DNA of 12,342 nt, from IMG/VR virus record IMGVR_UViG_2529293172_000014. One strand, given 5' to 3'. Below are positions 1 through 10,973 of the stretch, piece after piece (the first letter of the stretch is position 1; the number at the start of each line of letters is the position of its first letter). Under the pieces are notes generated by a model that searched no databases, was not told the origin of the DNA, and worked only from the letters and a program-made list of their open reading frames with translations. The stretch is from a virus. Taxonomy: Duplodnaviria > Heunggongvirae > Uroviricota > Caudoviricetes. The position numbers and the translations under genes were made by a program.

Positions 1-46
1 CAGGTACACCAACGGGCAGTGCCGAGCCTTCCCCCAAACCAACGTT
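1..46 (-). CDS. 5' fragment of a second tail-fibre C-terminal cassette (runs off the window start)
   Basis: Minus-strand frame leaving crossover site 29..54 encodes NVGLGEGSALPVGVP, the same junction peptide that begins the 48..509 cassette. Bases 1-54 are a near-identical direct repeat of 473-526 (4 mismatches before the site's right arm diverges). Partial, no stop in window. Confidence 0.4.
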
Positions 47-54
47 TTTATGCC
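29..54. other. Invertase crossover site (hix/gix/cix-like), copy 1
   Basis: TTCCCCCAAACC-AA-CGTTTTTATGCC: 12+2+12 layout with imperfect dyad AAACC/GGTTT around a central AA, closely resembling the Hin site TTCTTGAAAACC-AA-GGTTTTTGATAA as I recall it. Overlaps the TAA stop (48-50) of cassette 48..509. Confidence 0.65.
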
Positions 55-509
55 GCCCTTACGATATAATTAAAGGCAATATTACGAGGACGGTTTTCAT
101 TAGCTGTTGGCACGACACGAGAGGCGTCGAATCCAAGGTCATCGGTTTTGCCTATAGCAGTTGTGTTATTCGGCATTCTCGCAGATCGTGTTCCTGCATC
201 ATAAAAAGCCCCTCTGATTGCATCAAAAGACATGCCAATCCCGCCATCTGCGAACCCCTCAATATTTCTTATTGCATCCCCCTGTGAAGATAATAATTGT
301 CGCCCGGCATCCACACCACGTCCGTCATCCCAGCCACGAATAAATTCACCGCGTAAATCCGGCAATTTATTAGTAGGGTAAGCCTTTGCCAGATTTGGGT
401 ACTTTTCAGAAGAAAATGCTGCTCCGTTACATTTCAGCCACCCCGTTGGCGGAGTGGCTGAGGGCCACGGAACAGGTACGCCAACAGGCAATGCTGAGCC
501 TTCCCCCAA
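48..509 (-). CDS. Promoterless tail-fibre C-terminal variable cassette (receptor-binding tail-collar domain); the listed start is an internal Leu codon, not a true start
   Basis: Translation contains GWLKCNGAAFSSEKYPNLAKAYP...LPDLRGEFIRGWDDGRG, the phage tail-collar / tail-fibre C-terminal signature seen in Mu S, P1 S and P2 H-type fibres. The frame is open through crossover site 501..526 (TTG at 509, TAA just upstream at 519-521), as expected for a segment expressed only when fused to a constant 5' gene part by inversion. Confidence 0.75.
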   Translation of the reverse strand: MGEGSALPVGVPVPWPSATPPTGWLKCNGAAFSSEKYPNLAKAYPTNKLPDLRGEFIRGWDDGRGVDAGRQLLSSQGDAIRNIEGFADGGIGMSFDAIRGAFYDAGTRSARMPNNTTAIGKTDDLGFDASRVVPTANENRPRNIAFNYIVRAA

Positions 510-526
510 ACCAACGTTTTAGTCTT
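501..526. other. Invertase crossover site (hix/gix/cix-like), copy 2, adjacent to the invertase gene
   Basis: TTCCCCCAAACC-AA-CGTTTTAGTCTT; left arm and centre identical to copy 1, same orientation (direct repeat, offset 472 bp). Sits 55 bp upstream of the invertase ATG, as gixR does relative to gin in Mu. Confidence 0.65.
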
Positions 527-580
527 AATCCCTACCTATACCAACGATGTATTTTTAACTAAACAAAGAGGTTGTTTTTC

Positions 581-1153
581 ATGCAAATTGGCTACATTCG
601 TGTGTCAACAAATGACCAAAACACAGATTTACAAAGAAATGCACTGAACTGCGCAGGATGTGAACTGATTTTTGAAGATAAAATAAGCGGAACAAAGTCA
701 GCCAGACCAGGCTTGAAAAAGCTGCTCAGAACGTTATCAGAAGGAGATACGCTGGTTGTCTGGAAGCTGGATAGGCTTGGCAGAAGTATGAAACACCTTA
801 TCACGCTTATAGAGGAGTTGCGGGAAAAAGGTGTTAATTTCCGTAGTCTGACAGACAGTATTGACACATCAACACCCATGGGGCGTTTCTTTTTTCATGT
901 CATGGGTGCTTTAGCAGAAATGGAACGTGAATTAATTGTTGAGAGAACACTGGCCGGACTGGCAGCTGCACGCGAACAGGGACGCATTGGCGGACGTCGC
1001 CCGAAGTTGACAAAAGAACAACATGAGCAAATAGCGAGGTTGATCGAAAATGGCTACAGCAGGAAACAGTTGGCAATTATTTACGATATCGGTGTATCGA
1101 CGATTTATCGTTATCATCCTGTAGAGAAGCGCCAAACTCAATCTGAGCTGTAA
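581..1153 (+). CDS. cin: Serine DNA invertase, Cin/Gin/Hin/Pin/Min family
   Basis: MQIGYIRVSTNDQNTDLQRNAL... with the catalytic Ser in GYIRVST, conserved VVWKLDRLGRS and MGRFFFHVMGALAEMERELI blocks, and a C-terminal HTH (GYSRKQLAIIYDIGVSTIYRY). ATG at 581 is preceded by AAAGAGG; the TTG at 572 in the ORF track is a less likely start. Symbol cin is chosen from the P1-like context; the gene could equally be a Min-type allele. Confidence 0.9.
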   Translation: MQIGYIRVSTNDQNTDLQRNALNCAGCELIFEDKISGTKSARPGLKKLLRTLSEGDTLVVWKLDRLGRSMKHLITLIEELREKGVNFRSLTDSIDTSTPMGRFFFHVMGALAEMERELIVERTLAGLAAAREQGRIGGRRPKLTKEQHEQIARLIENGYSRKQLAIIYDIGVSTIYRYHPVEKRQTQSEL

Positions 1154-1588
1154 TTCTAATGCCGCGTCGGTGTAATTTATCTTGATAGAATAGGTACATT
1201 TATCGCGCGGCACATCAATTCGATGTATCTAGCGCCTGCTGACCGCTAATGAAAACTGTTCTCGAAATGTTGTCCCTAGTCCGAGACTAGGGTATCACCT
1301 CTGGAAAGCATACGCAGAACCTTTTTTAACCCAGGGTGCCCAGCCTTTTTGCTGCTCGCCTTATTCGCAAAAATTAGCTCACATCCTGCGCTTTCAAGTG
1401 CTTTTCACTGCATAGCTGTGTTTTGTTCATTTGTCTATATGCGTACATAGCCTATTAGCATATTTTCTGCCCACTATCGTTATTTATTGCAAGCTACAGG
1501 TTTTAATTAACAAAACCAGTGTGTGTGGAAATCACAAAGTGCATACCGTTCTCAAATGTTGTTCAACTTACTGTTGTATAGGTAAAAA

Positions 1589-1852
1589 ATGACATTTTAT
1601 GTACATATCGTGATGTTATCCCTTCTTGGTGGGGTGTATTCGTATTTGAGTGGGCTATGTGAAAACCGTTACGAGTCTTCATGCAAGAAATTGCTGGCCG
1701 AATGTATTTCCGCCGTACTTGCTGGCTTTATTGGCATGTATCTCGCGGAATATAAGGACATGAATGAAAGCCTTCAGAGCTGCATGGTTCTTATTTTCAG
1801 CGCCAATAGCAGGCTTATTATTGAAGGTTCCAAAAGTCGGTTGAATAGGTAA
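1589..1852 (+). CDS. Hypothetical small membrane protein (two hydrophobic segments)
   Basis: 87-aa ORF with hydrophobic stretches VHIVMLSLLGGVYSYLSGL and ISAVLAGFIGMYLA. No convincing Shine-Dalgarno sequence; lies in an AT-rich intergenic region ahead of the holin gene. Could be a lysis-associated membrane peptide or a spurious ORF. Confidence 0.3.
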   Translation: MTFYVHIVMLSLLGGVYSYLSGLCENRYESSCKKLLAECISAVLAGFIGMYLAEYKDMNESLQSCMVLIFSANSRLIIEGSKSRLNR

Positions 1853-1900
1853 GTCTCTTATGCAACATAACCGGTTGAGAAGTTACTTTGCATACCATTA

Positions 1901-1920
1901 CCTCCTGACAACGTAGGAGG
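1901..1920 (+). promoter_or_regulatory. Hairpin that can sequester the Shine-Dalgarno sequence of the holin gene
   Basis: CCTCCT (1901-1906), 8-nt loop GACAACGT, AGGAGG (1915-1920). The 3' arm is the AGGAGG ribosome-binding site 6 nt upstream of the GTG start at 1927. Confidence 0.35.
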
Positions 1921-1926
1921 GAACTT

Positions 1927-2256
1927 GTGCTTGACACACAGGAATTAGCTCCAGTTGCTATTGCGCTCCTGCTTTCAGTAATTGGTGGGATAGGCACGTT
2001 CCTGATGGATGTCCGAGACGGTCGCCAGTCTGGCAATTTGTTGGGATTGGTTACGGAGATCTTTGTTGCAGTGACAGCTGGCGCGGTGGCGTACCTATTG
2101 GGGCAACACGAGGGCTGGGAGTTATCAATTACGTACTTAATGGTAACGATAGCCAGCAATAACGGTCATGAGGTGATTTCAGGGATGAAACGAGTGAATA
2201 TCGATAGCATTCTGAATGTTCTTACAAGTTTGGTGAAAAAGGGAGGCGGGAAATGA
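1927..2256 (+). CDS. lydA: Holin-like small membrane protein (LydA-like)
   Basis: 109 aa, GTG start with a strong AGGAGG RBS. Hydrophobic segments LAPVAIALLLSVIGGIGTFL and LLGLVTEIFVAVTAGAVAYLLG, charged C-terminus KKGGGK. Position at the head of the dar operon matches recalled P1 lydA. Not alignment-verified. Confidence 0.6.
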   Translation: MLDTQELAPVAIALLLSVIGGIGTFLMDVRDGRQSGNLLGLVTEIFVAVTAGAVAYLLGQHEGWELSITYLMVTIASNNGHEVISGMKRVNIDSILNVLTSLVKKGGGK

Positions 2257-2696
2257 TTGGCTGGGGTGTATGCGTTCTTGCGTTAGCCTTAGCCGATCGC
2301 TATTTGCTAAAACGCAAGGACATCACGCATTTAGAACTTGGTGATGTGGAAATTAAACCGGGTTTCATCCGGGTGCCGTTCAAATACCGGTCTAAATTCC
2401 CGTTTTTGCGCGGCGCAACGGTCAGATATTGGATCCGCGATGTTCAGAAGCCAACGACAGTGATTGAAGGCGAACAACGTTGTCTGACGTCGGCTGAACA
2501 GGGCGAAAACAGTGAATGGTTGTACATACCCACTGAATATATGGGTAAAGGAGAACGGCTGTGGCATTTCAACGTCATGGTTACGCATGGCGACTCGTTC
2601 ATTAACCCGTTGTATCGGATTTTCCCTGTTACTCAGCAAATCCGCAGAAGTTACGTAATAAATCTCGCACAGGATGTGTCAGATGACGAAAAATAA
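2253..2696 (+). CDS. lydB: Antiholin-like protein (LydB-like), N-terminal hydrophobic anchor
   Basis: 147 aa; ATGA start/stop overlap with the preceding gene, RBS AGGGAGG. N-terminal MIGWGVCVLALALA segment then a soluble domain. Assignment by position and size relative to recalled P1 lydB. Confidence 0.5.
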   Translation: MIGWGVCVLALALADRYLLKRKDITHLELGDVEIKPGFIRVPFKYRSKFPFLRGATVRYWIRDVQKPTTVIEGEQRCLTSAEQGENSEWLYIPTEYMGKGERLWHFNVMVTHGDSFINPLYRIFPVTQQIRRSYVINLAQDVSDDEK

Positions 2697-3285
2697 GTAT
2701 GCAACGGTCGATTTTGACCAGGTTAATGAAAAGGGGCTGAAATCCCTTATCGCGGCGATCAATAAAACCGGTGTTACGGTAATTGAGGTTGACTCCAGCA
2801 ACCGCGCAACAACGAAAGATGGCGTTAAAGTTAAAACCGCAAAGCTGGTTCTTAACGACGGACAAATTCTTGCCATACAGGTAAACGATACTGGCGATAT
2901 ATCGTCTGTGAGGCTGAATGGAAAAGCTATTCCTAACGCTCAGTCGCCGGATATCAAGACGCTTGGTACCGTCATGGGGCAAGCGGCCCGCAAAAACTCC
3001 GCAAAATTCCAGAAATCACTGATCGCCAAAGCGAAACGTGTTGCCAATCCGGTAGACAAGAAACCGGCAGTAAAATCCAACTTTCAGCGCCTGCAAGAGG
3101 CAAAACAGCGGAATGCTCAGGTGGTTGCCGCTTATAAATCAGCGCAGAACTCGGTGTCTTTCAATCAACAGCAGATCACTGATTTGCGGGCGAAGCTGGA
3201 TAAGGAGACAGGCCGACTCAATAACGAAAAGGCCCGAAATGGCGAACTCAAACGCCGTCTTAAGCAACTGAAAGCAGGAAATTAA
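2683..3285 (+). CDS. hdf: Hdf-like head-morphogenesis protein of the Dar system (paralogous to the DarA N-terminal region)
   Basis: Start chosen at the second ATG (2683, MTKNKYATV), which has AGGA 8 nt upstream; the 2674 ATG has no spacing for an RBS. Shares LNDGQILAIQV / KNSAKFQ blocks with the downstream DarA-like protein (LSDGQTISILF / KNSAKFQ). C-terminal K/R-rich coiled-coil-like tail. Confidence 0.55.
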   Translation: MTKNKYATVDFDQVNEKGLKSLIAAINKTGVTVIEVDSSNRATTKDGVKVKTAKLVLNDGQILAIQVNDTGDISSVRLNGKAIPNAQSPDIKTLGTVMGQAARKNSAKFQKSLIAKAKRVANPVDKKPAVKSNFQRLQEAKQRNAQVVAAYKSAQNSVSFNQQQITDLRAKLDKETGRLNNEKARNGELKRRLKQLKAGN

Positions 3286-3286
3286 C

Positions 3287-5206
3287 ATGGAACAGTTCAA
3301 TATCAATAAAGGGGTGACGATCAAGCCTGGGCTTGACGTGCTTCCCCCGCCAGTGACTGATGATGAATATCGCGCATTAATGGCCGGTGAGGACCGCTAT
3401 CTGATGACGGAATCCAACACCCTGGAGGAAATCGAGGCTACGTTCTTCTATGACACGCCGATCCACTGGTGTGCTACGGATTTACTGGAGGCGATTAGTT
3501 CTACTCGTTTGCAGTTACACCGGACCATGCAGGCATTTGTCCGGGCATTGAACCAGAAGCTGAATGGTACCGGAATCTCTGCGGGGAGTGATAAAACGGG
3601 GGATGTGGCCCAGAGCGGCGCGCGCGCGATCGGCGGTGCTGAAATTGGCCGGGCACGTAACGTTAACGGGCTGCCGGTCCTGCCAGCCATTATTCCGCTC
3701 AGTGATGGTCAGACTATCAGCATTCTGTTTCATAGCCCGACAGCGGAAAACCGGATCACCAATAGCGATACGCTGGTTGCTTTCCAGTTCTTACTGAATA
3801 AAAAAGACGTTACTCACACCGTTGCTCCGATGAGTGGACGTGATATGACGCTGGCGCAGGTCACCATGAAACTTGCCAACCTTGCAGAGAAAAACTCGGC
3901 AAAATTTCAGCGTGCGCAGAAGAAGAAAAAAGCCCTTGTTGATGAAATAACCCAACTACAGGCTGACAGTGACCAGAAAGAGGATGCCATGAGCGACCTC
4001 GTGGATCAGGTGGCAGCGGTAGAAGGGCAGAAGGTAGATCTGGAGCAGAAAATTAACGCTGTTGCATCGGAAGCGGATTCTCTTTATGAAGAGAATGAGC
4101 GTTTGCAGACGGAGATTGATCAGCTCAATCGCACTGGTGGGCGCGATACCATTGCTCCTGCGGGGATGACTGGTGGACACTCTCGCGCGATGACGGATCG
4201 CCTTGCCAGTATCAAAAATCGTATGCATATGAACGGGGAAGTGACGCTCAGTAATGGTGCATCAATGAAGCAATTCATTGAGGACGGCGAAGGGTATATC
4301 CAGTTAACCGATTCGGATGGCAGCGTGTACATGATCAAGGCTAAATCCATACAGGGTGTGGACATGGCAGATGCGATCGGCAAGCTGTTTAAAGCCTATA
4401 AAGCGGGTAATGTATCGGAATACCTGGTCCAACCAGAAGAACATAAACCGGAAAACGTCGAACCTGAACCAGCGGAGGATACCGGTAGCTCTTCGCCTGA
4501 ACCAGAAGTCTCTGTAGGTGCATATCGATATGCCCTGCAAATGCGTCCGGCGGCCCCTGGCGCAATACCTGAAGGTAACAAAGCAATTCTGCCGCGCCCT
4601 GATGAAGGTGACCCGTATTATGAATATGCACGCTACGGCATTGCTACTTACGATACCCCGCTTTCTGATCAGCAAATGAGTGAGTACGACCTGAAGTTAT
4701 TGCCTCGCGAGGATTCTTTCGACTTCCTGGCGAAGACACTTACTAATGGTCCGTTTGGCAAATATGCACAAAAAGCTCTGGAGCTGGCCACCAGCTCACC
4801 AGACGAGTTCCGCGTAATGCTGAAAACTCAGTTTCAAAAAACTTTCCCCAATATTGCGTTTCCGGGGGGCGCTGGCACCGAGAAAATGGTGCAGAGCATG
4901 ATCAATGCATTGCAGGCCGAAGTCGGTGAGATTACTCAGCCAGAACCTGCCCCGGCACAGCCTGATGAAACGGTTAGCGAAGCAGATGCAGAGGCTAATA
5001 AAGCCATTGAATATCTCAATAACGTGATGGATATGCAAAGCACTGACATGGCGGAGATCCGTAACGCCCGGGGTAATGTCCGGGAAGCGATTGCAGCCCT
5101 TCAGGCTGCCGGGCGTTTTGAGGAAAACGAAGAGCTGGTTAATGGCGCTGCTCGCCACTTGGCTGATCTGCTGGTAGCAATCCAGAAAGCGGGGGTAGCG
5201 GCATGA
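3287..5206 (+). CDS. darA: DarA-like internal head / antirestriction protein
   Basis: 639 aa; starts 1 nt after the hdf stop with an AGGAA RBS. Central coiled-coil-like region (LVDEITQLQADSDQKED...ENERLQTEIDQL) and an acidic Pro/Glu-rich linker (PEEHKPENVEPEPAEDTGSSSPEPE). Size and operon position match recalled P1 DarA. Confidence 0.65.
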   Translation: MEQFNINKGVTIKPGLDVLPPPVTDDEYRALMAGEDRYLMTESNTLEEIEATFFYDTPIHWCATDLLEAISSTRLQLHRTMQAFVRALNQKLNGTGISAGSDKTGDVAQSGARAIGGAEIGRARNVNGLPVLPAIIPLSDGQTISILFHSPTAENRITNSDTLVAFQFLLNKKDVTHTVAPMSGRDMTLAQVTMKLANLAEKNSAKFQRAQKKKKALVDEITQLQADSDQKEDAMSDLVDQVAAVEGQKVDLEQKINAVASEADSLYEENERLQTEIDQLNRTGGRDTIAPAGMTGGHSRAMTDRLASIKNRMHMNGEVTLSNGASMKQFIEDGEGYIQLTDSDGSVYMIKAKSIQGVDMADAIGKLFKAYKAGNVSEYLVQPEEHKPENVEPEPAEDTGSSSPEPEVSVGAYRYALQMRPAAPGAIPEGNKAILPRPDEGDPYYEYARYGIATYDTPLSDQQMSEYDLKLLPREDSFDFLAKTLTNGPFGKYAQKALELATSSPDEFRVMLKTQFQKTFPNIAFPGGAGTEKMVQSMINALQAEVGEITQPEPAPAQPDETVSEADAEANKAIEYLNNVMDMQSTDMAEIRNARGNVREAIAALQAAGRFEENEELVNGAARHLADLLVAIQKAGVAA

Positions 5207-5568
5207 CACTATCAGCTATTGAGTTAATGGATCTCAGCGATAAGTTGGATGCTTTGATGTCCAAAGCGGCTACCGCGAGTGGCATGGAGTTGCTGGATAT
5301 CAGCGATGAAATTGACCAGATCATGCAACAGATGGGGTACGGTGTGTCCGGTGGCAGTAGTGGCGAGGAAAAACAACCTTCGGTACATGATGGTGTGCCA
5401 AAACTGGTTGCTGATTTCCTGGCTGATAAATTCGTCGATCAGAGCACCGATGCATTTATCGGTACCTTGCAGGATTTGAGTCAATATGTTGGCACATACA
5501 TCGACCTGGACCAGGTTAAACAGCACACGGCGGCATGGATAGCCGCCAACATTAAAGAGGCAGCATAA
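5203..5568 (+). CDS. ddrA: DdrA-like small Dar-operon protein
   Basis: 121 aa; ATGA overlap with darA. Contains an internal tandem repeat IELMDLSDKLDALM / MELLDISDEIDQIM. Confidence 0.55.
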   Translation: MTLSAIELMDLSDKLDALMSKAATASGMELLDISDEIDQIMQQMGYGVSGGSSGEEKQPSVHDGVPKLVADFLADKFVDQSTDAFIGTLQDLSQYVGTYIDLDQVKQHTAAWIAANIKEAA

Positions 5569-5580
5569 GGCGTAACAGGG

Positions 5581-8568
5581 ATGAGCTTAAGCGATCAGGT
5601 GGTAATGGCCACCAGCATAGAAACGCTGATCGAGCTGCTAAAGAACCTGCCCGGTTATGGGCGGGTTTCGTATGTGGTGACAGCGAAGGGAGACGAGGTA
5701 AAAACAGCGTTTGATATCGTCGATGCCTCAGCTCTTTTGGTATCCAATACTCTGGATGGGAAAATTAATCCTGACTATCCCCAGGAACTTCAGCCGCGCG
5801 ACCGGACCCGCGCATCCAGCCTTCTTCAGGTTAACCAGATATCCAAAGATTTGCGGCCTGCTCAGCTTACTGATTCCGGTTTATCCAGCCATGGTGCGCC
5901 GATAATTGGTGAGGACAATGCCGTTGAGTCAGGTAATGGACGGACCATGGGGATCATCAAAGCCTATCAGGACGGCAATGCGGATCGGTATCGTGAGTAC
6001 CTGATTGATCATGCGACCGAATTCGGCATACGACCTGAAAAGGTTGAATCAATGACGGCTCCGGTACTGGTGCGCCGCCGGTTAACCAAGGTTGACCGCG
6101 TTCAGTTTGCCAAGGACTCAAATATTTCTGATCTTCAGGAAATGGCAGCCAGTGAAAAGGCTTTTGTTGATGCCGACAGCATAACACCGGCGATGATGGC
6201 GCTTTTTAACCCGTCAGAAAGCGGAGATCTGCTTAGCCGCAGTAATGACGCGTTTATTCGCGGATTTATGACGCAAGTTGGTGCCACACAGGCGGCTGGC
6301 CTTGTAACTGAAGATGGGCGACCAACACGGCAACTTGTAGACCGTATACAAAACGCGATCTTTGCCAAGGCATATAAGGATGCGCGCCTGGTAAGGATGG
6401 TTGCAGAAGAACCTGATCCGGACATGCGTAATGTTCTGACGGCGCTTAATGCGGCAGCCAATGATTTTGTCCAGATGCAGGCTTTATCAGGAGAAGCGCA
6501 CAAGCAGGCTGTGACAACTATCGTTGATGGTATTGAAACAGCGGATAGCCTCGATAAAAAGGCGCTGGCGGCATTGAAAGATGCGGTAGACCTGGTAAGG
6601 CAATCGAAGGAGTCAGGCCAACATATTAACGATGTTATTGCTCAGGGGGATATGTTCAGCGAAACGGCCCCGGAAGTGAAAGCACTCGCGTTGTTCATCG
6701 TCGCGAATAACCGTAGCGCGAAGCGTATGGCCTCCGCCTTTAAGTTGATGGCTCAACGTATCAATGATGAGTTACAGCACCAGGGCCAGGCGCTGGGGGA
6801 TATGTTTGGCGGTGGTGATGTGTCGTTACAGGATATCCTTCGCCAGGTGTCTCAGGAACTGGAAAACGAAGGCATGCAAGGGATATCCGGCGGTCTTTTC
6901 GAGTCCGTTTCCGGCGGTAGTTACAATGGTGTTGCTCCATATACCAGTTTGCTATTACATCGGGCATCCGGCATCAAAGACATTATTCATCTGATCAGGC
7001 TGCTTTCCCGTACAGATCCCCAGGATGAACAGCTTGTACAAGTGCTTGCGCATTTTGTTCGAATGCCTGTTGCCGACGTGAAAAAATGGTGCCGATTATT
7101 CGGTATCAGCAATTCGTTACTTCGCGGCTTGTTAAATCACGCATCCTCCCTTGGGCGCGATGGCTTTGACGAGATAGCGCAGGCGATAAAAAACGGAGAT
7201 ATGCCACCAGCTATTGACTGGTTTTCCATTCGCCCAACCAGGGTGAAAGCATTCCTTAGCGCGGCGCATTCGGCATCACCATTGGCAGAAATGGTTCAGA
7301 GGTTGTCGCTCATATTCACAGACCATACCGCGTTGGGTGATCTGACTCTGGACGAGATGAAAGAAGCCTCCATTCAGTGGGCCGATCAACAAAATGAGGT
7401 TAACTCTGACTTCTTGCCAGCATTCAGGAAGGCCGTTAGTAAAGCTGATGATGCCCGTGGAATTCTGAGGGCATTTAAGGCATTGCAAAGTCAGGTTAAT
7501 AAACATGTCGGTGATATCGATGGGGTAACGGCGGAAGGCAGGGATATCCTTAAAGAGCACGGCATAACGCCAGAGTTTATTGATGAGATCAGGACTGATA
7601 TGCAGCGTGAGGTCGTATCGTCCCTGCAAATCGTAGCCAGAGCGTTGGCGGATGCTAATCCGAAGAGTGCGGCCATTGTTAACCGTGTTATTGGTGATAT
7701 TGAAGCATCGGAGGGCATGGGGGCGCTGAAACTCTTCCTTTCGCGAGCGTTTAATCCTAACGGCAATATTCTCCCCGGCATTATTGGTGAGGCTAAAAAG
7801 TATGTCAGCGAAGAAGAACTTGAGCATCTTGACCAACTACTTAAGCGATTCTCATATAACCCGCAGACACGCTGGCAAATGAATCAGCAAAGTATGGGTT
7901 CGGTCCACGAGAAAGTGTTATCTGCCATGAACAGTGCGATCGCCAACTCATCCGTATCTGAAGAAAAAGCTCTTGAGTGGGCCGACTCTTTTATCACGGA
8001 AGAAGTGGAAGAAGCCCGCGCTGGACAGAATGGTGGGATAGACCTGCGCAAGGAACTTGCTGATATTTATCGCCTGACCGGCGGTAAAATTTCGACCTTA
8101 TCAAAGGTGGTTCACCACCAGGGAAGGGCATATGCAAATATTAATGGTGTTGTTGCTGTCAATTTGAACGATGAAAATGCAAGTGCACTGTGGCACGAGC
8201 TGGGTCATCATCTTGAGTACAGTAACCTTGGTTTGTTAGAGAAAGCCCGGTCATTCCTGAAGGCCAATGTTGAAGGGGATAAGCCATCTTTCGTTAATAT
8301 CGGTGGGCGTGGCAAGCCTGAATGGTGCTTCAGATCTCGATTGAGTAATATTTATATGGCGAAGGTATACCCGCCAGCCTCAGTAAGTAACACCGGGAAA
8401 ATTCGGCAGAAATCACCGACTATTTCCAAAACGTCAGCAACGGAAGTATTCTCTATGGCTCTTCAGTTGTATCATGACAAAGAGGCCGCTGCCGCATCAC
8501 TGATGAATGGTGACGGATTGCTGGAACTGTTATTAGGTGTGGCAAAGGAGCTAAATAATGCAGATTAA
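5581..8568 (+). CDS. ddrB: DdrB-like large Dar-operon protein; carries an HEXXH motif near the C-terminus
   Basis: 995 aa, uninterrupted ORF in operon with the preceding genes. WHELGHHLEYS at codons 871-877 (nt 8191-8211). Size and position match recalled P1 DdrB. Confidence 0.6.
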   Translation: MSLSDQVVMATSIETLIELLKNLPGYGRVSYVVTAKGDEVKTAFDIVDASALLVSNTLDGKINPDYPQELQPRDRTRASSLLQVNQISKDLRPAQLTDSGLSSHGAPIIGEDNAVESGNGRTMGIIKAYQDGNADRYREYLIDHATEFGIRPEKVESMTAPVLVRRRLTKVDRVQFAKDSNISDLQEMAASEKAFVDADSITPAMMALFNPSESGDLLSRSNDAFIRGFMTQVGATQAAGLVTEDGRPTRQLVDRIQNAIFAKAYKDARLVRMVAEEPDPDMRNVLTALNAAANDFVQMQALSGEAHKQAVTTIVDGIETADSLDKKALAALKDAVDLVRQSKESGQHINDVIAQGDMFSETAPEVKALALFIVANNRSAKRMASAFKLMAQRINDELQHQGQALGDMFGGGDVSLQDILRQVSQELENEGMQGISGGLFESVSGGSYNGVAPYTSLLLHRASGIKDIIHLIRLLSRTDPQDEQLVQVLAHFVRMPVADVKKWCRLFGISNSLLRGLLNHASSLGRDGFDEIAQAIKNGDMPPAIDWFSIRPTRVKAFLSAAHSASPLAEMVQRLSLIFTDHTALGDLTLDEMKEASIQWADQQNEVNSDFLPAFRKAVSKADDARGILRAFKALQSQVNKHVGDIDGVTAEGRDILKEHGITPEFIDEIRTDMQREVVSSLQIVARALADANPKSAAIVNRVIGDIEASEGMGALKLFLSRAFNPNGNILPGIIGEAKKYVSEEELEHLDQLLKRFSYNPQTRWQMNQQSMGSVHEKVLSAMNSAIANSSVSEEKALEWADSFITEEVEEARAGQNGGIDLRKELADIYRLTGGKISTLSKVVHHQGRAYANINGVVAVNLNDENASALWHELGHHLEYSNLGLLEKARSFLKANVEGDKPSFVNIGGRGKPEWCFRSRLSNIYMAKVYPPASVSNTGKIRQKSPTISKTSATEVFSMALQLYHDKEAAAASLMNGDGLLELLLGVAKELNNAD

Positions 8569-8869
8569 AATCGCAGCGCCATTAGGCGGAGATGCCATTA
8601 TCGAATTTGATGATAATGAAGAAGTTTCCGGGCGTTTAAGCATTATCTCCGGTGACATTACCGAGGACATGATCGCTGAAGCCATAGCTGGGGCAAATCC
8701 CAATAGCTATATGGGATTCGTTAACACCCTTGATGCTCCCGCAAGTGATGTTCTCCGAACGCTGCATCTTTACGCTGGCTGGTTTGTTGATTGGCCAGCA
8801 GTAGATGGTGGCGATGAGGACGACGACGACGATGATTTTGGTGATCATGTAGACCAGATCGTATATTGA
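8558..8869 (+). CDS. Small highly acidic protein with a poly-Asp tract
   Basis: 103 aa; AAGGAG RBS 7 nt upstream of the ATG; overlaps the ddrB stop by 11 nt (translational coupling). Roughly 24 Asp/Glu against 3 Lys/Arg; DEDDDDDD tract encoded by GATGAG(GAC)4GATGAT at 8813-8836. Confidence 0.55.
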   Translation: MQIKIAAPLGGDAIIEFDDNEEVSGRLSIISGDITEDMIAEAIAGANPNSYMGFVNTLDAPASDVLRTLHLYAGWFVDWPAVDGGDEDDDDDDFGDHVDQIVY

Positions 8870-8871
8870 AG

Positions 8872-8897
8872 AAATCCCGCCAATTGGCGGGATTTTT
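8872..8897. terminator. Rho-independent, probably bidirectional, terminator between convergent operons
   Basis: Perfect 10-bp stem AAATCCCGCC (8872-8881), loop AATT, GGCGGGATTT (8886-8895), followed by TT on the plus strand. Lies exactly between the stop of 8558..8869 (+) and the stop of 8901..9995 (-). Confidence 0.7.
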
Positions 8898-8900
8898 ACC

Positions 8901-9995
8901 TCACGAGAAACTCTTTTCTGATGTCAGCCAACAGTGCTCGTGCATATCTCTTGGTGGTTTTTCGACAAATGCCTCTTCAGCCACATCCTGCCAGGGGATT
9001 TGTTTAGCCCATTCAGTTATAGCGTTATGGTTTGCCGAGAATAACGGTATTGTATAGGCCTTCAGCCAGTCTAATGTGCTGGAGTTGTGTTTTTGAGCGT
9101 GATGTTTCGCATGGTGTTTGGCGATCACGATCGTAGGCACTACCCATTTACTACCGTCAGTCATTGTGAAGTGCATATTACGGGGAACAGATGACTTTTC
9201 CATCAACTCCCGAATCCCTGGGAATTTCCCCAAGATCAATCGGCGATATTCATCGCTATTGCGCCCACCAAACTCTTTGGCTTTGAATTCAAGATATGCT
9301 TCAGAAACGAGAGGTGAATCCTCTGTGTTTAGAGTTATCGCCGTGAAAAAACCAGCAGGATTGTTTTTACTATGGGCCAACCGGTGATGCGAATCATAAA
9401 AGTACCCTTTCTCGCGTTCCGATGGTTTCGACAGCAACAGCAGGCGCGAGTCATAATTGGTTAAATTGCCAGTTATCACTGCATGAGCGCGATCGCTGAT
9501 TTCCGCCGAGTTAATAACGATGAAAAGATCGTGCGGTCCAGTAAAACCAGCCAGAGACTCTTCGTTATTCAGACAATAGGTTATATAGACGCATCCCCAT
9601 GTTTCACTGATATGCACCAACCCTTTGTCAGGGTGTATTCTGAAATAATTGCCAAGAAAAGTGTGTTTTTGGGTAACTCGCTCCCAATAACGGAACATAT
9701 AGTCAATTATTGTTTTTCGACAATCGTTAATCGCAGGAGAAACAACCACTGTACGGGAACACGAATACAGTATTGTTTGCAGGATGCTAATCACTGCCAC
9801 AATAGAGGTTTCCCCAATACCATGTGGTGTGGTGGCAGTGATTTTGGCTCCGGTGTTCTTTATCGCGTTAATAATTTTTGCTTGATGAGGTGTTAACTCA
9901 ATATCAAGCAACTCTTTTGCTGCCAGTTCCCAATTGTCTTTATACCGTTCTATCAGTGCTAACCAGGCAGATTCATTCTGTATACGATTAATCAC
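8901..9995 (-). CDS. Hypothetical protein (364 aa); degenerate P-loop-like GIGETS segment and a His-rich HAKHHAKHHAQKH motif
   Basis: Long minus-strand ORF; GTG start at 9995 with GAGGTGG RBS; overlaps the upstream gene's stop by 8 nt. No motif I can assign with confidence. The layout (LTPHQ...GIGETS...DLFIVINSAE...ITGN) loosely recalls an ATPase domain, but the Walker lysine is absent. Confidence 0.6.
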   Translation of the reverse strand: MINRIQNESAWLALIERYKDNWELAAKELLDIELTPHQAKIINAIKNTGAKITATTPHGIGETSIVAVISILQTILYSCSRTVVVSPAINDCRKTIIDYMFRYWERVTQKHTFLGNYFRIHPDKGLVHISETWGCVYITYCLNNEESLAGFTGPHDLFIVINSAEISDRAHAVITGNLTNYDSRLLLLSKPSEREKGYFYDSHHRLAHSKNNPAGFFTAITLNTEDSPLVSEAYLEFKAKEFGGRNSDEYRRLILGKFPGIRELMEKSSVPRNMHFTMTDGSKWVVPTIVIAKHHAKHHAQKHNSSTLDWLKAYTIPLFSANHNAITEWAKQIPWQDVAEEAFVEKPPRDMHEHCWLTSEKSFS

Positions 9996-10776
9996 TTTCC
10001 ACCTCTTCCGTGGTGTTTTCTTGCAGTTCTGTTAATGCAGCACGACATAGGTTCCGGGCATTGGCTATAGCCACACTTTTGACTTCATCCGTCATCGTGC
10101 AGGTAATGTACTGATCGAGTTCTTCAGCGCGGATGATGCTTTTGCCAATCAGAAACTGTATTTGCCATAGCAGATCGGCATCCATAATCAGAATTTCTGC
10201 CGGGCCTTCAGGGCCAGCCGGGAAGGAAACATAAGACTGTTTGCCCAGGCCGACAACTCGACAACTTGCTTCAAGAATTGCGCGCTTGAGGTCTGACTTT
10301 ATAACGGAAACAGGTTGATTTTCACCAGTGATTACGCCGTTGACATGGAAAGGCATGTAGCTTGAAATACGCTCTACTTTCCACACGCCAGCAAGCGATC
10401 CTTCATGCAGCACAATGGGGGTAACCGCGAGTTTCATCTCACCATATAACTGCTGGCAGATAGCTGGATTGCTGAATACATCTAAAGGCTCACATTCAAA
10501 CAGCGGCGCAATCTGCATGAGGTCCATCATGGTCATCCCTGGGGTACGAGCAGTAATGAATTTGCGCATACCAGTATCCATTGCGCTCCAGATTGCTACA
10601 CCATGCTTTTTGCTCACTTCTTCAGTAAAGCCAAGGTGGCACATGATGGTTTTTTCGATAGCCAGATCAGAGATAGAAACCTTTTCGCCAGGTACTCCAT
10701 CATTATTGATGGTCACTTCGACACTCTGGCCATTACGTAGGCGGTATTGAATGGTTTTAGTATTTTGTGCTGTCAT
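9988..10776 (-). CDS. Hypothetical protein (about 263 aa from ATG 10776)
   Basis: Long minus-strand ORF, translationally coupled to the downstream 8901..9995 gene. Start placed at MTAQNTK (ATG 10776) because the track's extension to 10896 would overlap the small upstream ORF 10791..10973; starts at 10890/10896 cannot be excluded. No recognisable catalytic motif. Confidence 0.5.
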   Translation of the reverse strand: MTAQNTKTIQYRLRNGQSVEVTINNDGVPGEKVSISDLAIEKTIMCHLGFTEEVSKKHGVAIWSAMDTGMRKFITARTPGMTMMDLMQIAPLFECEPLDVFSNPAICQQLYGEMKLAVTPIVLHEGSLAGVWKVERISSYMPFHVNGVITGENQPVSVIKSDLKRAILEASCRVVGLGKQSYVSFPAGPEGPAEILIMDADLLWQIQFLIGKSIIRAEELDQYITCTMTDEVKSVAIANARNLCRAALTELQENTTEEVESD

Positions 10777-10790
10777 AGTCTTTTCTCTGC

Positions 10791-10973
10791 TTAAAAACTG
10801 ATGTATTGCGTCTTCAGGTGGGTTAGGAATGTTTTCCCACCAGCGAAAGCAATATCTCGTGGTGTTCTGTTCGTTAAAAACGCGTGCCATTGCCAACTTT
10901 GGCGTTTTTTAGCGAGTTCGTGCTTTTGTTGGCGTTTGGACCACCGCTTTTCTTTCAGTCGTTTTTTACTCAT
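10791..10973 (-). CDS. Possible small basic protein (60 aa), tightly packed between ssb and the next gene
   Basis: MSKKRLKEKRWSKRQQKHELAKKRQ...; starts 5 nt after the ssb stop and ends 15 nt before ATG 10776. Weak RBS. Could instead be a non-coding spacer; an 8-bp inverted repeat AAAAACGC...GCGTTTTT (10876-10883 / 10903-10910) lies inside it. Confidence 0.3.
   Translation of the reverse strand: MSKKRLKEKRWSKRQQKHELAKKRQSWQWHAFLTNRTPRDIAFAGGKTFLTHLKTQYISF

Follow-up and report, generated by a model that had tools for sequence, protein, structure and literature searches.

Phage P1, a classic transducing phage, evades type I restriction by means of six capsid-internal proteins, one of which is DdrB. 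DdrB is a P1 head protein, represented by 39 unique peptides in purified virions; its gene is non-essential, and it has been described as aiding the addition of DarB to the capsid. Incorporation of the Dar proteins is ordered, beginning with Hdf and DarA and continuing with DdrA, DdrB, DarB and Ulx, and the sensitivity of ddrB mutants to EcoB and EcoK has been ascribed to a failure to package DarB and Ulx. The resulting protection covers only the co-packaged DNA and does not extend to a co-infecting Dar- phage. A possible enzymatic function in DdrB has been recognized for some time: the P1 RefSeq record carries the note ‘possible metallopeptidase’, in the P1 annotation since 2004, the JL22 record names the protein ‘putative metallopeptidase’, and Iyer et al. 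2017 (PMC5512222) identified a C-terminal zincin-like metallopeptidase (MPTase) domain in P1 DdrB, discussed its function, and unified this MPTase family with lethal factor by HHpred. Here we analyze ddrB in a 12,342-nucleotide (nt) stretch of P1-like phage DNA (IMG/VR record IMGVR_UViG_2529293172_000014; hereafter the window), in which the ddrB open reading frame (ORF) is 98-99% identical at the nucleotide level to those of P1, P7, SJ46, JL22 and their relatives.

The metallopeptidase domain of DdrB is real but already known, and finding it again adds little. What is new here is a corrected set of putative catalytic residues (E879, Y930 and E955), a loop insertion specific to the P1 clade, an affinity to lethal factor and MtfA rather than to the M78 and SprT families, and a counted gene order of DarA_N, MPTase and giant DarB-like proteins, together with evidence from gene fusion. 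These refinements mainly sharpen the design of experiments of the E873Q type.

The C-terminal peptidase domain

The ddrB ORF (5581-8568, plus strand) spans 2,988 nt and, from the ORF list and its translation, encodes a protein of 995 residues, a head-internal protein of the darA operon. Near its N-terminus lies a ddrB-ParB domain (residues 36-167, nt 5686-6081, plus strand; Pfam PF18763, E 2.1e-39), and the MPTase module occupies residues 771-995 (nt 7891-8565, plus strand), with a core common to distant homologues at about residues 785-965. The segment at 8191-8211 (tgg cac gag ctg ggt cat cat) reads W871-H872-E873-L874-G875-H876-H877 in the ddrB frame, so the preliminary description of this DNA had placed the HELGH motif correctly; of the 11-residue WHELGHHLEYS that it assigned to the same segment only the first seven residues lie there, the full string extending to nt 8223. 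The HExxH proper, at nt 8194-8208, is the only one in DdrB. Given the composition of the protein (21 His and 63 Glu), the chance expectation for such a motif is 0.028, lower than the value of about 0.1 first suggested, and 2.8% of shuffled sequences contain one. Rarity at 0.028 is not decisive by itself; it is conservation that settles whether the motif is real.

A word-indexed search gave only six close relatives, and an exhaustive search was needed: phmmer with residues 761-995 against 1.84 billion representative proteins returned 340 homologues at E<=1e-3. Residue counts were taken from an alignment of 150 listed of these 340 matches together with the close relatives, and a curated global alignment (A1) of 41 diverse domains, with a mean column identity of 28%, was built alongside it. 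H872, E873 and H876 occur in every aligned homologue (156/156) at identities of only about 25-40%, and E879 in 156/157, the lone exception being an Asp. Exactly six columns of A1 are invariant, namely H872, E873, H876, E879, Y925 and E955, the last of which is likewise invariant in alignment A2; the columns conserved at 90% or more are E914, R849, G835, G927, Y930 and S958. In the larger alignment the corresponding counts are 132/140 for E914, which is invariant in the full-length homologues, 135/152 for R849, 134/152 for A852, 138/142 for Y925 and 134/139 for Y930.

AlphaFold2 run on A1 for residues 771-995 produced a confident model (predicted local distance difference test (pLDDT) 91.2, predicted template modelling score (pTM) 0.89). 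In the numbering of that fragment, DSSP assigns a helix at 52-62, sheet strands at 72-75, 81-83 and 87-90, a helix at 94-111 that bears the HExxHxxE motif, and more helices, one of which (186-192) starts directly after E955. The N-terminal helix, three-stranded sheet, HExxH helix and further helix of a zincin core are thus all present in the model, in the order published for this core (Iyer et al. 2017). In DdrB the predicted sheet comprises residues 842-845, 851-853 and 857-860 and includes R849-A-x-A852 (nt 8104-8160, plus strand). A model of full-length DdrB from a nine-sequence alignment was too poor for inferences about domain arrangement or cleavage sites (pLDDT 59, pTM 0.39).

Among the outcomes that the preliminary description had named as counting against its hypothesis were loss of the motif among DdrB homologues and lack of a metallopeptidase-like fold in structure prediction; the motif proved to be conserved throughout the family, and a zincin core is predicted. 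It might still be argued that an HExxH is short, that no curated hidden Markov model (HMM) recognizes the region and that a Foldseek search against the PDB was negative, as would be expected of a fortuitous motif in a long protein lacking any peptidase domain. Retention of H872, E873 and H876 in every one of such divergent homologues excludes a chance motif, and we give that explanation virtually no weight. We put at roughly 90% the probability that residues ~771-995 form a real, intact zincin metallopeptidase. Whereas its conservation, fold and genomic linkage are observed, zinc binding, catalysis and a substrate are inferred; our literature searches found no experimental report of zinc binding or peptidase activity by DdrB.

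The conserved positions suggest how the active site may be built. Within the active-site helix motif H872-E873-L-G-H876-H877-L-E879 (nt 8194-8217, plus strand), H872 and H876 would be the zinc-binding His residues and E873 the general base, while E879, by analogy with the Asp of HExxHxxD, would provide a second-shell carboxylate. The segment Y925-M-A-K-V-Y930 (nt 8353-8370, plus strand) corresponds to a family consensus Y-[VI]-G-K-[VI]-Y, and its second Tyr, Y930, is the candidate catalytic Tyr. E955, in T-E955-V-F-S-M (nt 8440-8457, plus strand), is invariant and sits at the N-terminus of the model helix 186-192, which makes it the likely third zinc ligand; the alternative candidates are E879 and E914, the latter a conserved Glu in a non-helical loop or hairpin of the model (nt 8320-8322, plus strand). 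The two Glu residues first proposed as part of the signature, ‘13 and 24’ positions downstream, are E887 and E898: they lie at +15 and +26 from H872 or +11 and +22 from H876, the quoted spacings applying only when counted from L874, and they are conserved in just 33/148 and 53/150 homologues, respectively.

The P1 clade departs from the rest of the family in the loop between the conserved Tyr and Glu. The Tyr-Glu gap in the family is most often five residues (73/145), with four in 21/145 and six in 6/145, compared with Y-x24-E in the P1 clade, because of a clade-specific insertion of about 19-22 residues (residues 931-952, nt 8371-8436, plus strand) that is evident from the spacing and forms the least confident block of the AlphaFold2 model (pLDDT 64). 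The inserted segment (PPASVSNTGKIRQKSPTISKTS), in which Ser, Thr, Lys and Pro abound, separates the conserved Tyr from the putative zinc-ligand Glu and might act as a regulatory or auto-inhibitory loop.

The window phage itself shows four differences from reference P1 DdrB in the last 225 residues, none of them at a conserved catalytic position. One is at residue 883 (nt 8227-8229), just after HExxHxxE-Y-S-N, where Leu in the window replaces the Pro found in P1 and in the majority of homologues (consensus S-N-P).

Affinities among zincin families

Scans of whole DdrB and of its C-terminal part against Pfam, NCBIfam and PHROGs gave no significant match to a peptidase family, the PHROGs matches being solely to its own family and to PHROGs of unknown function. 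The lethal factor family ATLF (PF07737) scored 11.5 bits on DdrB (E 0.24), short of its cut-off of 27.4 bits, and its best match among the 41 members of A1 reached E 0.024. When each of these members was scanned against Pfam at E<=1, the matches were scattered and sub-threshold (Zincin_1, ATLF, Reprolysin, M66, M91 and M10), and there were none at all to Peptidase_M78, SprT-like or MPTase-PolyVal. A phmmer search of PDB sequences with DdrB found nothing relevant, and the matches of the A1 profile were limited to a designed repeat protein at E>0.5 and, at E ~0.5-0.7, the HExxH helices of FtsH/YME1.

In structural comparison the closest neighbours of the DdrB domain are anthrax lethal factor, Pro-Pro endopeptidase (PPEP) and Mlc titration factor A (MtfA), with lower scores for ERAP1 (5.5), Wss1 (5.2), the M32 carboxypeptidases, IrrE/PprI (4.9), CapP (4.7) and Spartan (4.4). 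This ranking is consistent both with the invariance of the motif and with the HHpred link to lethal factor established independently for this domain class (Iyer et al. 2017). The lethal factor/MtfA group combines HExxH with a later helix whose Y-x6-E element supplies the catalytic Tyr and the Glu ligand (PMC6356308), and the pattern of the DdrB family, HE-x-x-H-x-x-E ... Y-[VI]-G-K-[VI]-Y-x(4-6)-[ST]-E-V-x-S-M, can be set beside that of Escherichia coli MtfA, HEVAHKLD ... Y-AASDPA-E-CFAVLSEYF. The model points to a gluzincin-type peptidase whose nearest structural kin are the lethal factor/PPEP (M34) and MtfA (M90) group.

Each of these relatives nevertheless differs from DdrB. Lethal factor and PPEP share only about 12-15% identity with the DdrB domain, and the ATLF HMM remains far under its cut-off; their Tyr-Glu gap is of six residues, compared with four to six in the DdrB family (24 in P1), and DdrB is a cargo protein of a phage capsid, not a secreted toxin. 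MtfA shares HExxHxx[D/E] with DdrB but is a cytoplasmic bacterial regulator and aminopeptidase, not a phage protein, and hhalign probabilities between the two are just 2-5%. Against a single MtfA sequence hhalign aligned only the HExxH helix, and against 79 enterobacterial MtfA sequences, a shallow profile in which all are at least 80% identical, the probability was 4.5%, which is not significant. That weak alignment pairs HELGH with HEVAH and TEVFSM with AECFAV, placing E955 on the Glu of ‘PAECFAV’, and is a hint of residue correspondence only.

The preliminary description had likened the motif to the signatures of M78, SprT and ArdC-type peptidases, an affinity that neither the HMM scans, with no profile match, nor the structural ranking, in which such enzymes fall below lethal factor, PPEP and MtfA, bears out. 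In SprT-like and Wss1 (WLM) peptidases HExxH is soon followed by a third His ligand, for which the DdrB family has no conserved equivalent; ImmA/IrrE (M78) and SprT/Wss1 alike are without HMM matches and score structurally below lethal factor and MtfA. The ArdC C-terminal metalloprotease (MPTase-PolyVal, PF18818) is likewise an HExxH zincin in an antirestriction protein transferred with DNA, and ArdC and DdrB belong to the same broad ‘polyvalent MPTase’ assemblage of Iyer et al. 2017. DdrB differs from ArdC in that neither it nor 40 homologues match PF18818, in that ArdC-N, a domain binding ssDNA, was found neither in it nor in full-length homologues, and in having a ParB domain instead, in a phage-type architecture. 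Among the polyvalent-protein MPTases P1 DdrB is itself named, with the same C-terminal HExxH domain accompanying ddrB-ParB, and a phage-type clade with an acidic residue three positions past HExxH was described there (Iyer et al. 2017). The protein in the window has the makeup of that assemblage, an HExxH zincin fused to ddrB-ParB in a multidomain phage protein delivered with DNA.

Genomic context and the possible role of the peptidase in Dar

Many distant homologues are proteins of ~600-630 residues with the peptidase in the middle, and their surroundings resemble the Dar genes. Genomic context was looked up for seven of them, of which six contigs were informative. A DarA_N-domain protein is encoded immediately or almost immediately upstream in 5/6, and downstream of the peptidase gene in those contigs lies a gene for a very large polyvalent protein, which in two cases (L085 and L091) contains an Eco57I-type methylase, SNF2 and Helicase_C and is thus DarB-like, and in a third (L086) contains LPD1. 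InPase, ddrB-ParB, DarA_N, LPD1 and methylase-SNF2 proteins are thus the fusion partners or neighbours of the homologues. Such Dar-like cassettes occur in uncultured phages (L091, also L085, L086 and L088). The metagenome contig Ga0675941_001578 (L091, 5346-17890) encodes two DarA_N proteins, a small ORF and a 629-residue MPTase protein, followed by a 1,493-residue protein with InPase and ddrB-ParB and a methylase-SNF2 (DarB-like) protein of more than 2,184 residues. MPTase and ParB are therefore separate neighbouring genes in L091 and one fused polypeptide in P1 DdrB; furthermore, the DarB-like gene lies within the cassette in L091, whereas darB of P1 has a separate location in its genome. 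The order of DarA_N, peptidase and giant protein genes recurs, and the peptidase is thus a long-established, integral part of Dar-type cassettes for capsid cargo. The same peptidase domain is also found at the C-terminus of a 1,207-residue hypothetical protein of Vibrio phage VAP7 (Ackermannviridae; L003, 4073-7696), which has no Pfam-recognizable domain outside the peptidase; there are ~70 Vibrio phage records with a protein of this type.

We favour, tentatively and at slightly less than even odds, a role for the DdrB peptidase in limited proteolysis within the Dar assembly. Cleavage would affect DdrB itself and/or co-packaged cargo such as DarB and Ulx, and could take place during packaging or on ejection. 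Iyer et al. 2017 proposed that the domain lets DdrB, before it is packaged, process itself to the 76-kDa form that has been reported. An alternative agent for such processing is Pro, the prohead protease by which DarA and the major capsid protein are trimmed. Gonzales et al. 2022 give no peptide map of DdrB in their supplement. A conserved, apparently active peptidase in the Dar cargo would offer the most experimentally tractable handle on the Dar mechanism, because E873Q alone would separate a scaffolding role of DdrB from a catalytic one.

The peptidase could instead have been retained mainly for a structural or adaptor function, bringing DarB and Ulx into the procapsid, its zinc site being structural and no functional proteolysis taking place. 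The sole experimentally assigned role of DdrB, aiding DarB addition, fits this, ordered incorporation of the Dar proteins requires binding alone, and ddrB is non-essential. However, pseudo-peptidases usually lose the catalytic Glu, and the invariance of E873 and of all putative ligands across very divergent homologues is typical of active enzymes, so that we regard a purely structural module as unlikely. An attack on the host was what the preliminary description had envisaged, with the injected peptidase acting on a defence component. The peptidase module it described is real, as the conservation indicates, but a freely diffusing inactivator of host restriction enzymes is excluded because Dar acts only in cis. 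More generally, cleavage of a host defence protein such as a subunit of a type I restriction-modification system, whether or not the peptidase is tethered to DNA by the ParB domain, has no known substrate to point to; the ddrB phenotype is accounted for by the loss of DarB and Ulx packaging, and the domain co-occurs with DarA_N and DarB-like cargo genes, with no identifiable host-targeting module. We judge a host target to be improbable on these grounds. Its DNA-tethered version, in which the ParB domain would load DdrB onto ejected P1 DNA and the peptidase would clip type I restriction complexes, or other defence proteins that track along DNA, only at sites of contact with that DNA, would reconcile proteolytic antirestriction with a strictly cis-acting Dar, and would be a phage counterpart of the DNA-dependent proteases Wss1 and Spartan and of ClpXP-mediated restriction alleviation; we consider it a long shot.

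The position of ddrB beside hxr, annotated in P1 as a homologue of Xre, could bring to mind an anti-repressor protease of the ImmA/IrrE (M78) type, with the neighbouring Xre-like Hxr as its target. This is very improbable, since Peptidase_M78 matches none of the 41 A1 members, IrrE ranks well under lethal factor, PPEP and MtfA in structure, and the hxr neighbour is missing from most homologous cassettes, in which the giant polyvalent protein is found instead. Limited proteolysis within the Dar assembly thus remains the role that we prefer for the DdrB peptidase.

The ddrB locus in the window

The darA operon has the gene order lydA, lydB, hdf, darA, ddrA, ddrB, hxr. In the window, hdf (2674-3285, plus strand) encodes a Pfam DarA_N domain and darA (3287-5206, plus strand) DarA_N and DarA_C, while ddrA (5203-5568, plus strand) lies directly upstream of ddrB, all three being named after the P1 annotation. 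Downstream, hxr (8558-8869, plus strand; P1 label ‘possible repressor; homolog of Xre’) overlaps the end of ddrB, including its stop codon, by 11 nt. An ImmA/ImmR-like pairing of DdrB with Hxr was rejected, as neither an M78 nor a helix-turn-helix signal was detected; Hxr has no Pfam match of any kind, helix-turn-helix families included, at E<=1. Its only match among the distant cassettes is a marginal one, to a small ORF that follows a distant ddrB homologue. Within ddrB, ORF calling alone gives an antisense ORF of 122 residues (6135-6503, minus strand) that corresponds to P1 ‘iddB’, which CRISPR interference data indicate to be non-essential.

Both flanks of the operon depart from reference P1. 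The region downstream of hxr (8870-10900) is without the IS1 that separates isaB and isaA in P1: P1 aligns to it in two pieces with 70% coverage, and phage vB_EcoM-813R1 with 100% coverage. The two minus-strand ORFs there, at 8901-9995 (364 residues) and 9988-10896 (302 residues), have no Pfam match and may be what the isaB/isaA region looks like when uninterrupted. The left end of the window (1-2000) is unlike P1, whose alignment is restricted to nt 1285-2000 at ~84%. It contains a tail-collar ORF (48-509, minus strand) and a resolvase/invertase ORF (572-1153; Resolvase and HTH_7) that, unlike cin when the P1 locus is set in the equivalent orientation, is on the plus strand. The top matches to this end are phages with annotated Hin1/Hin2 invertases, which points to a tail-fibre inversion module different from that of P1.

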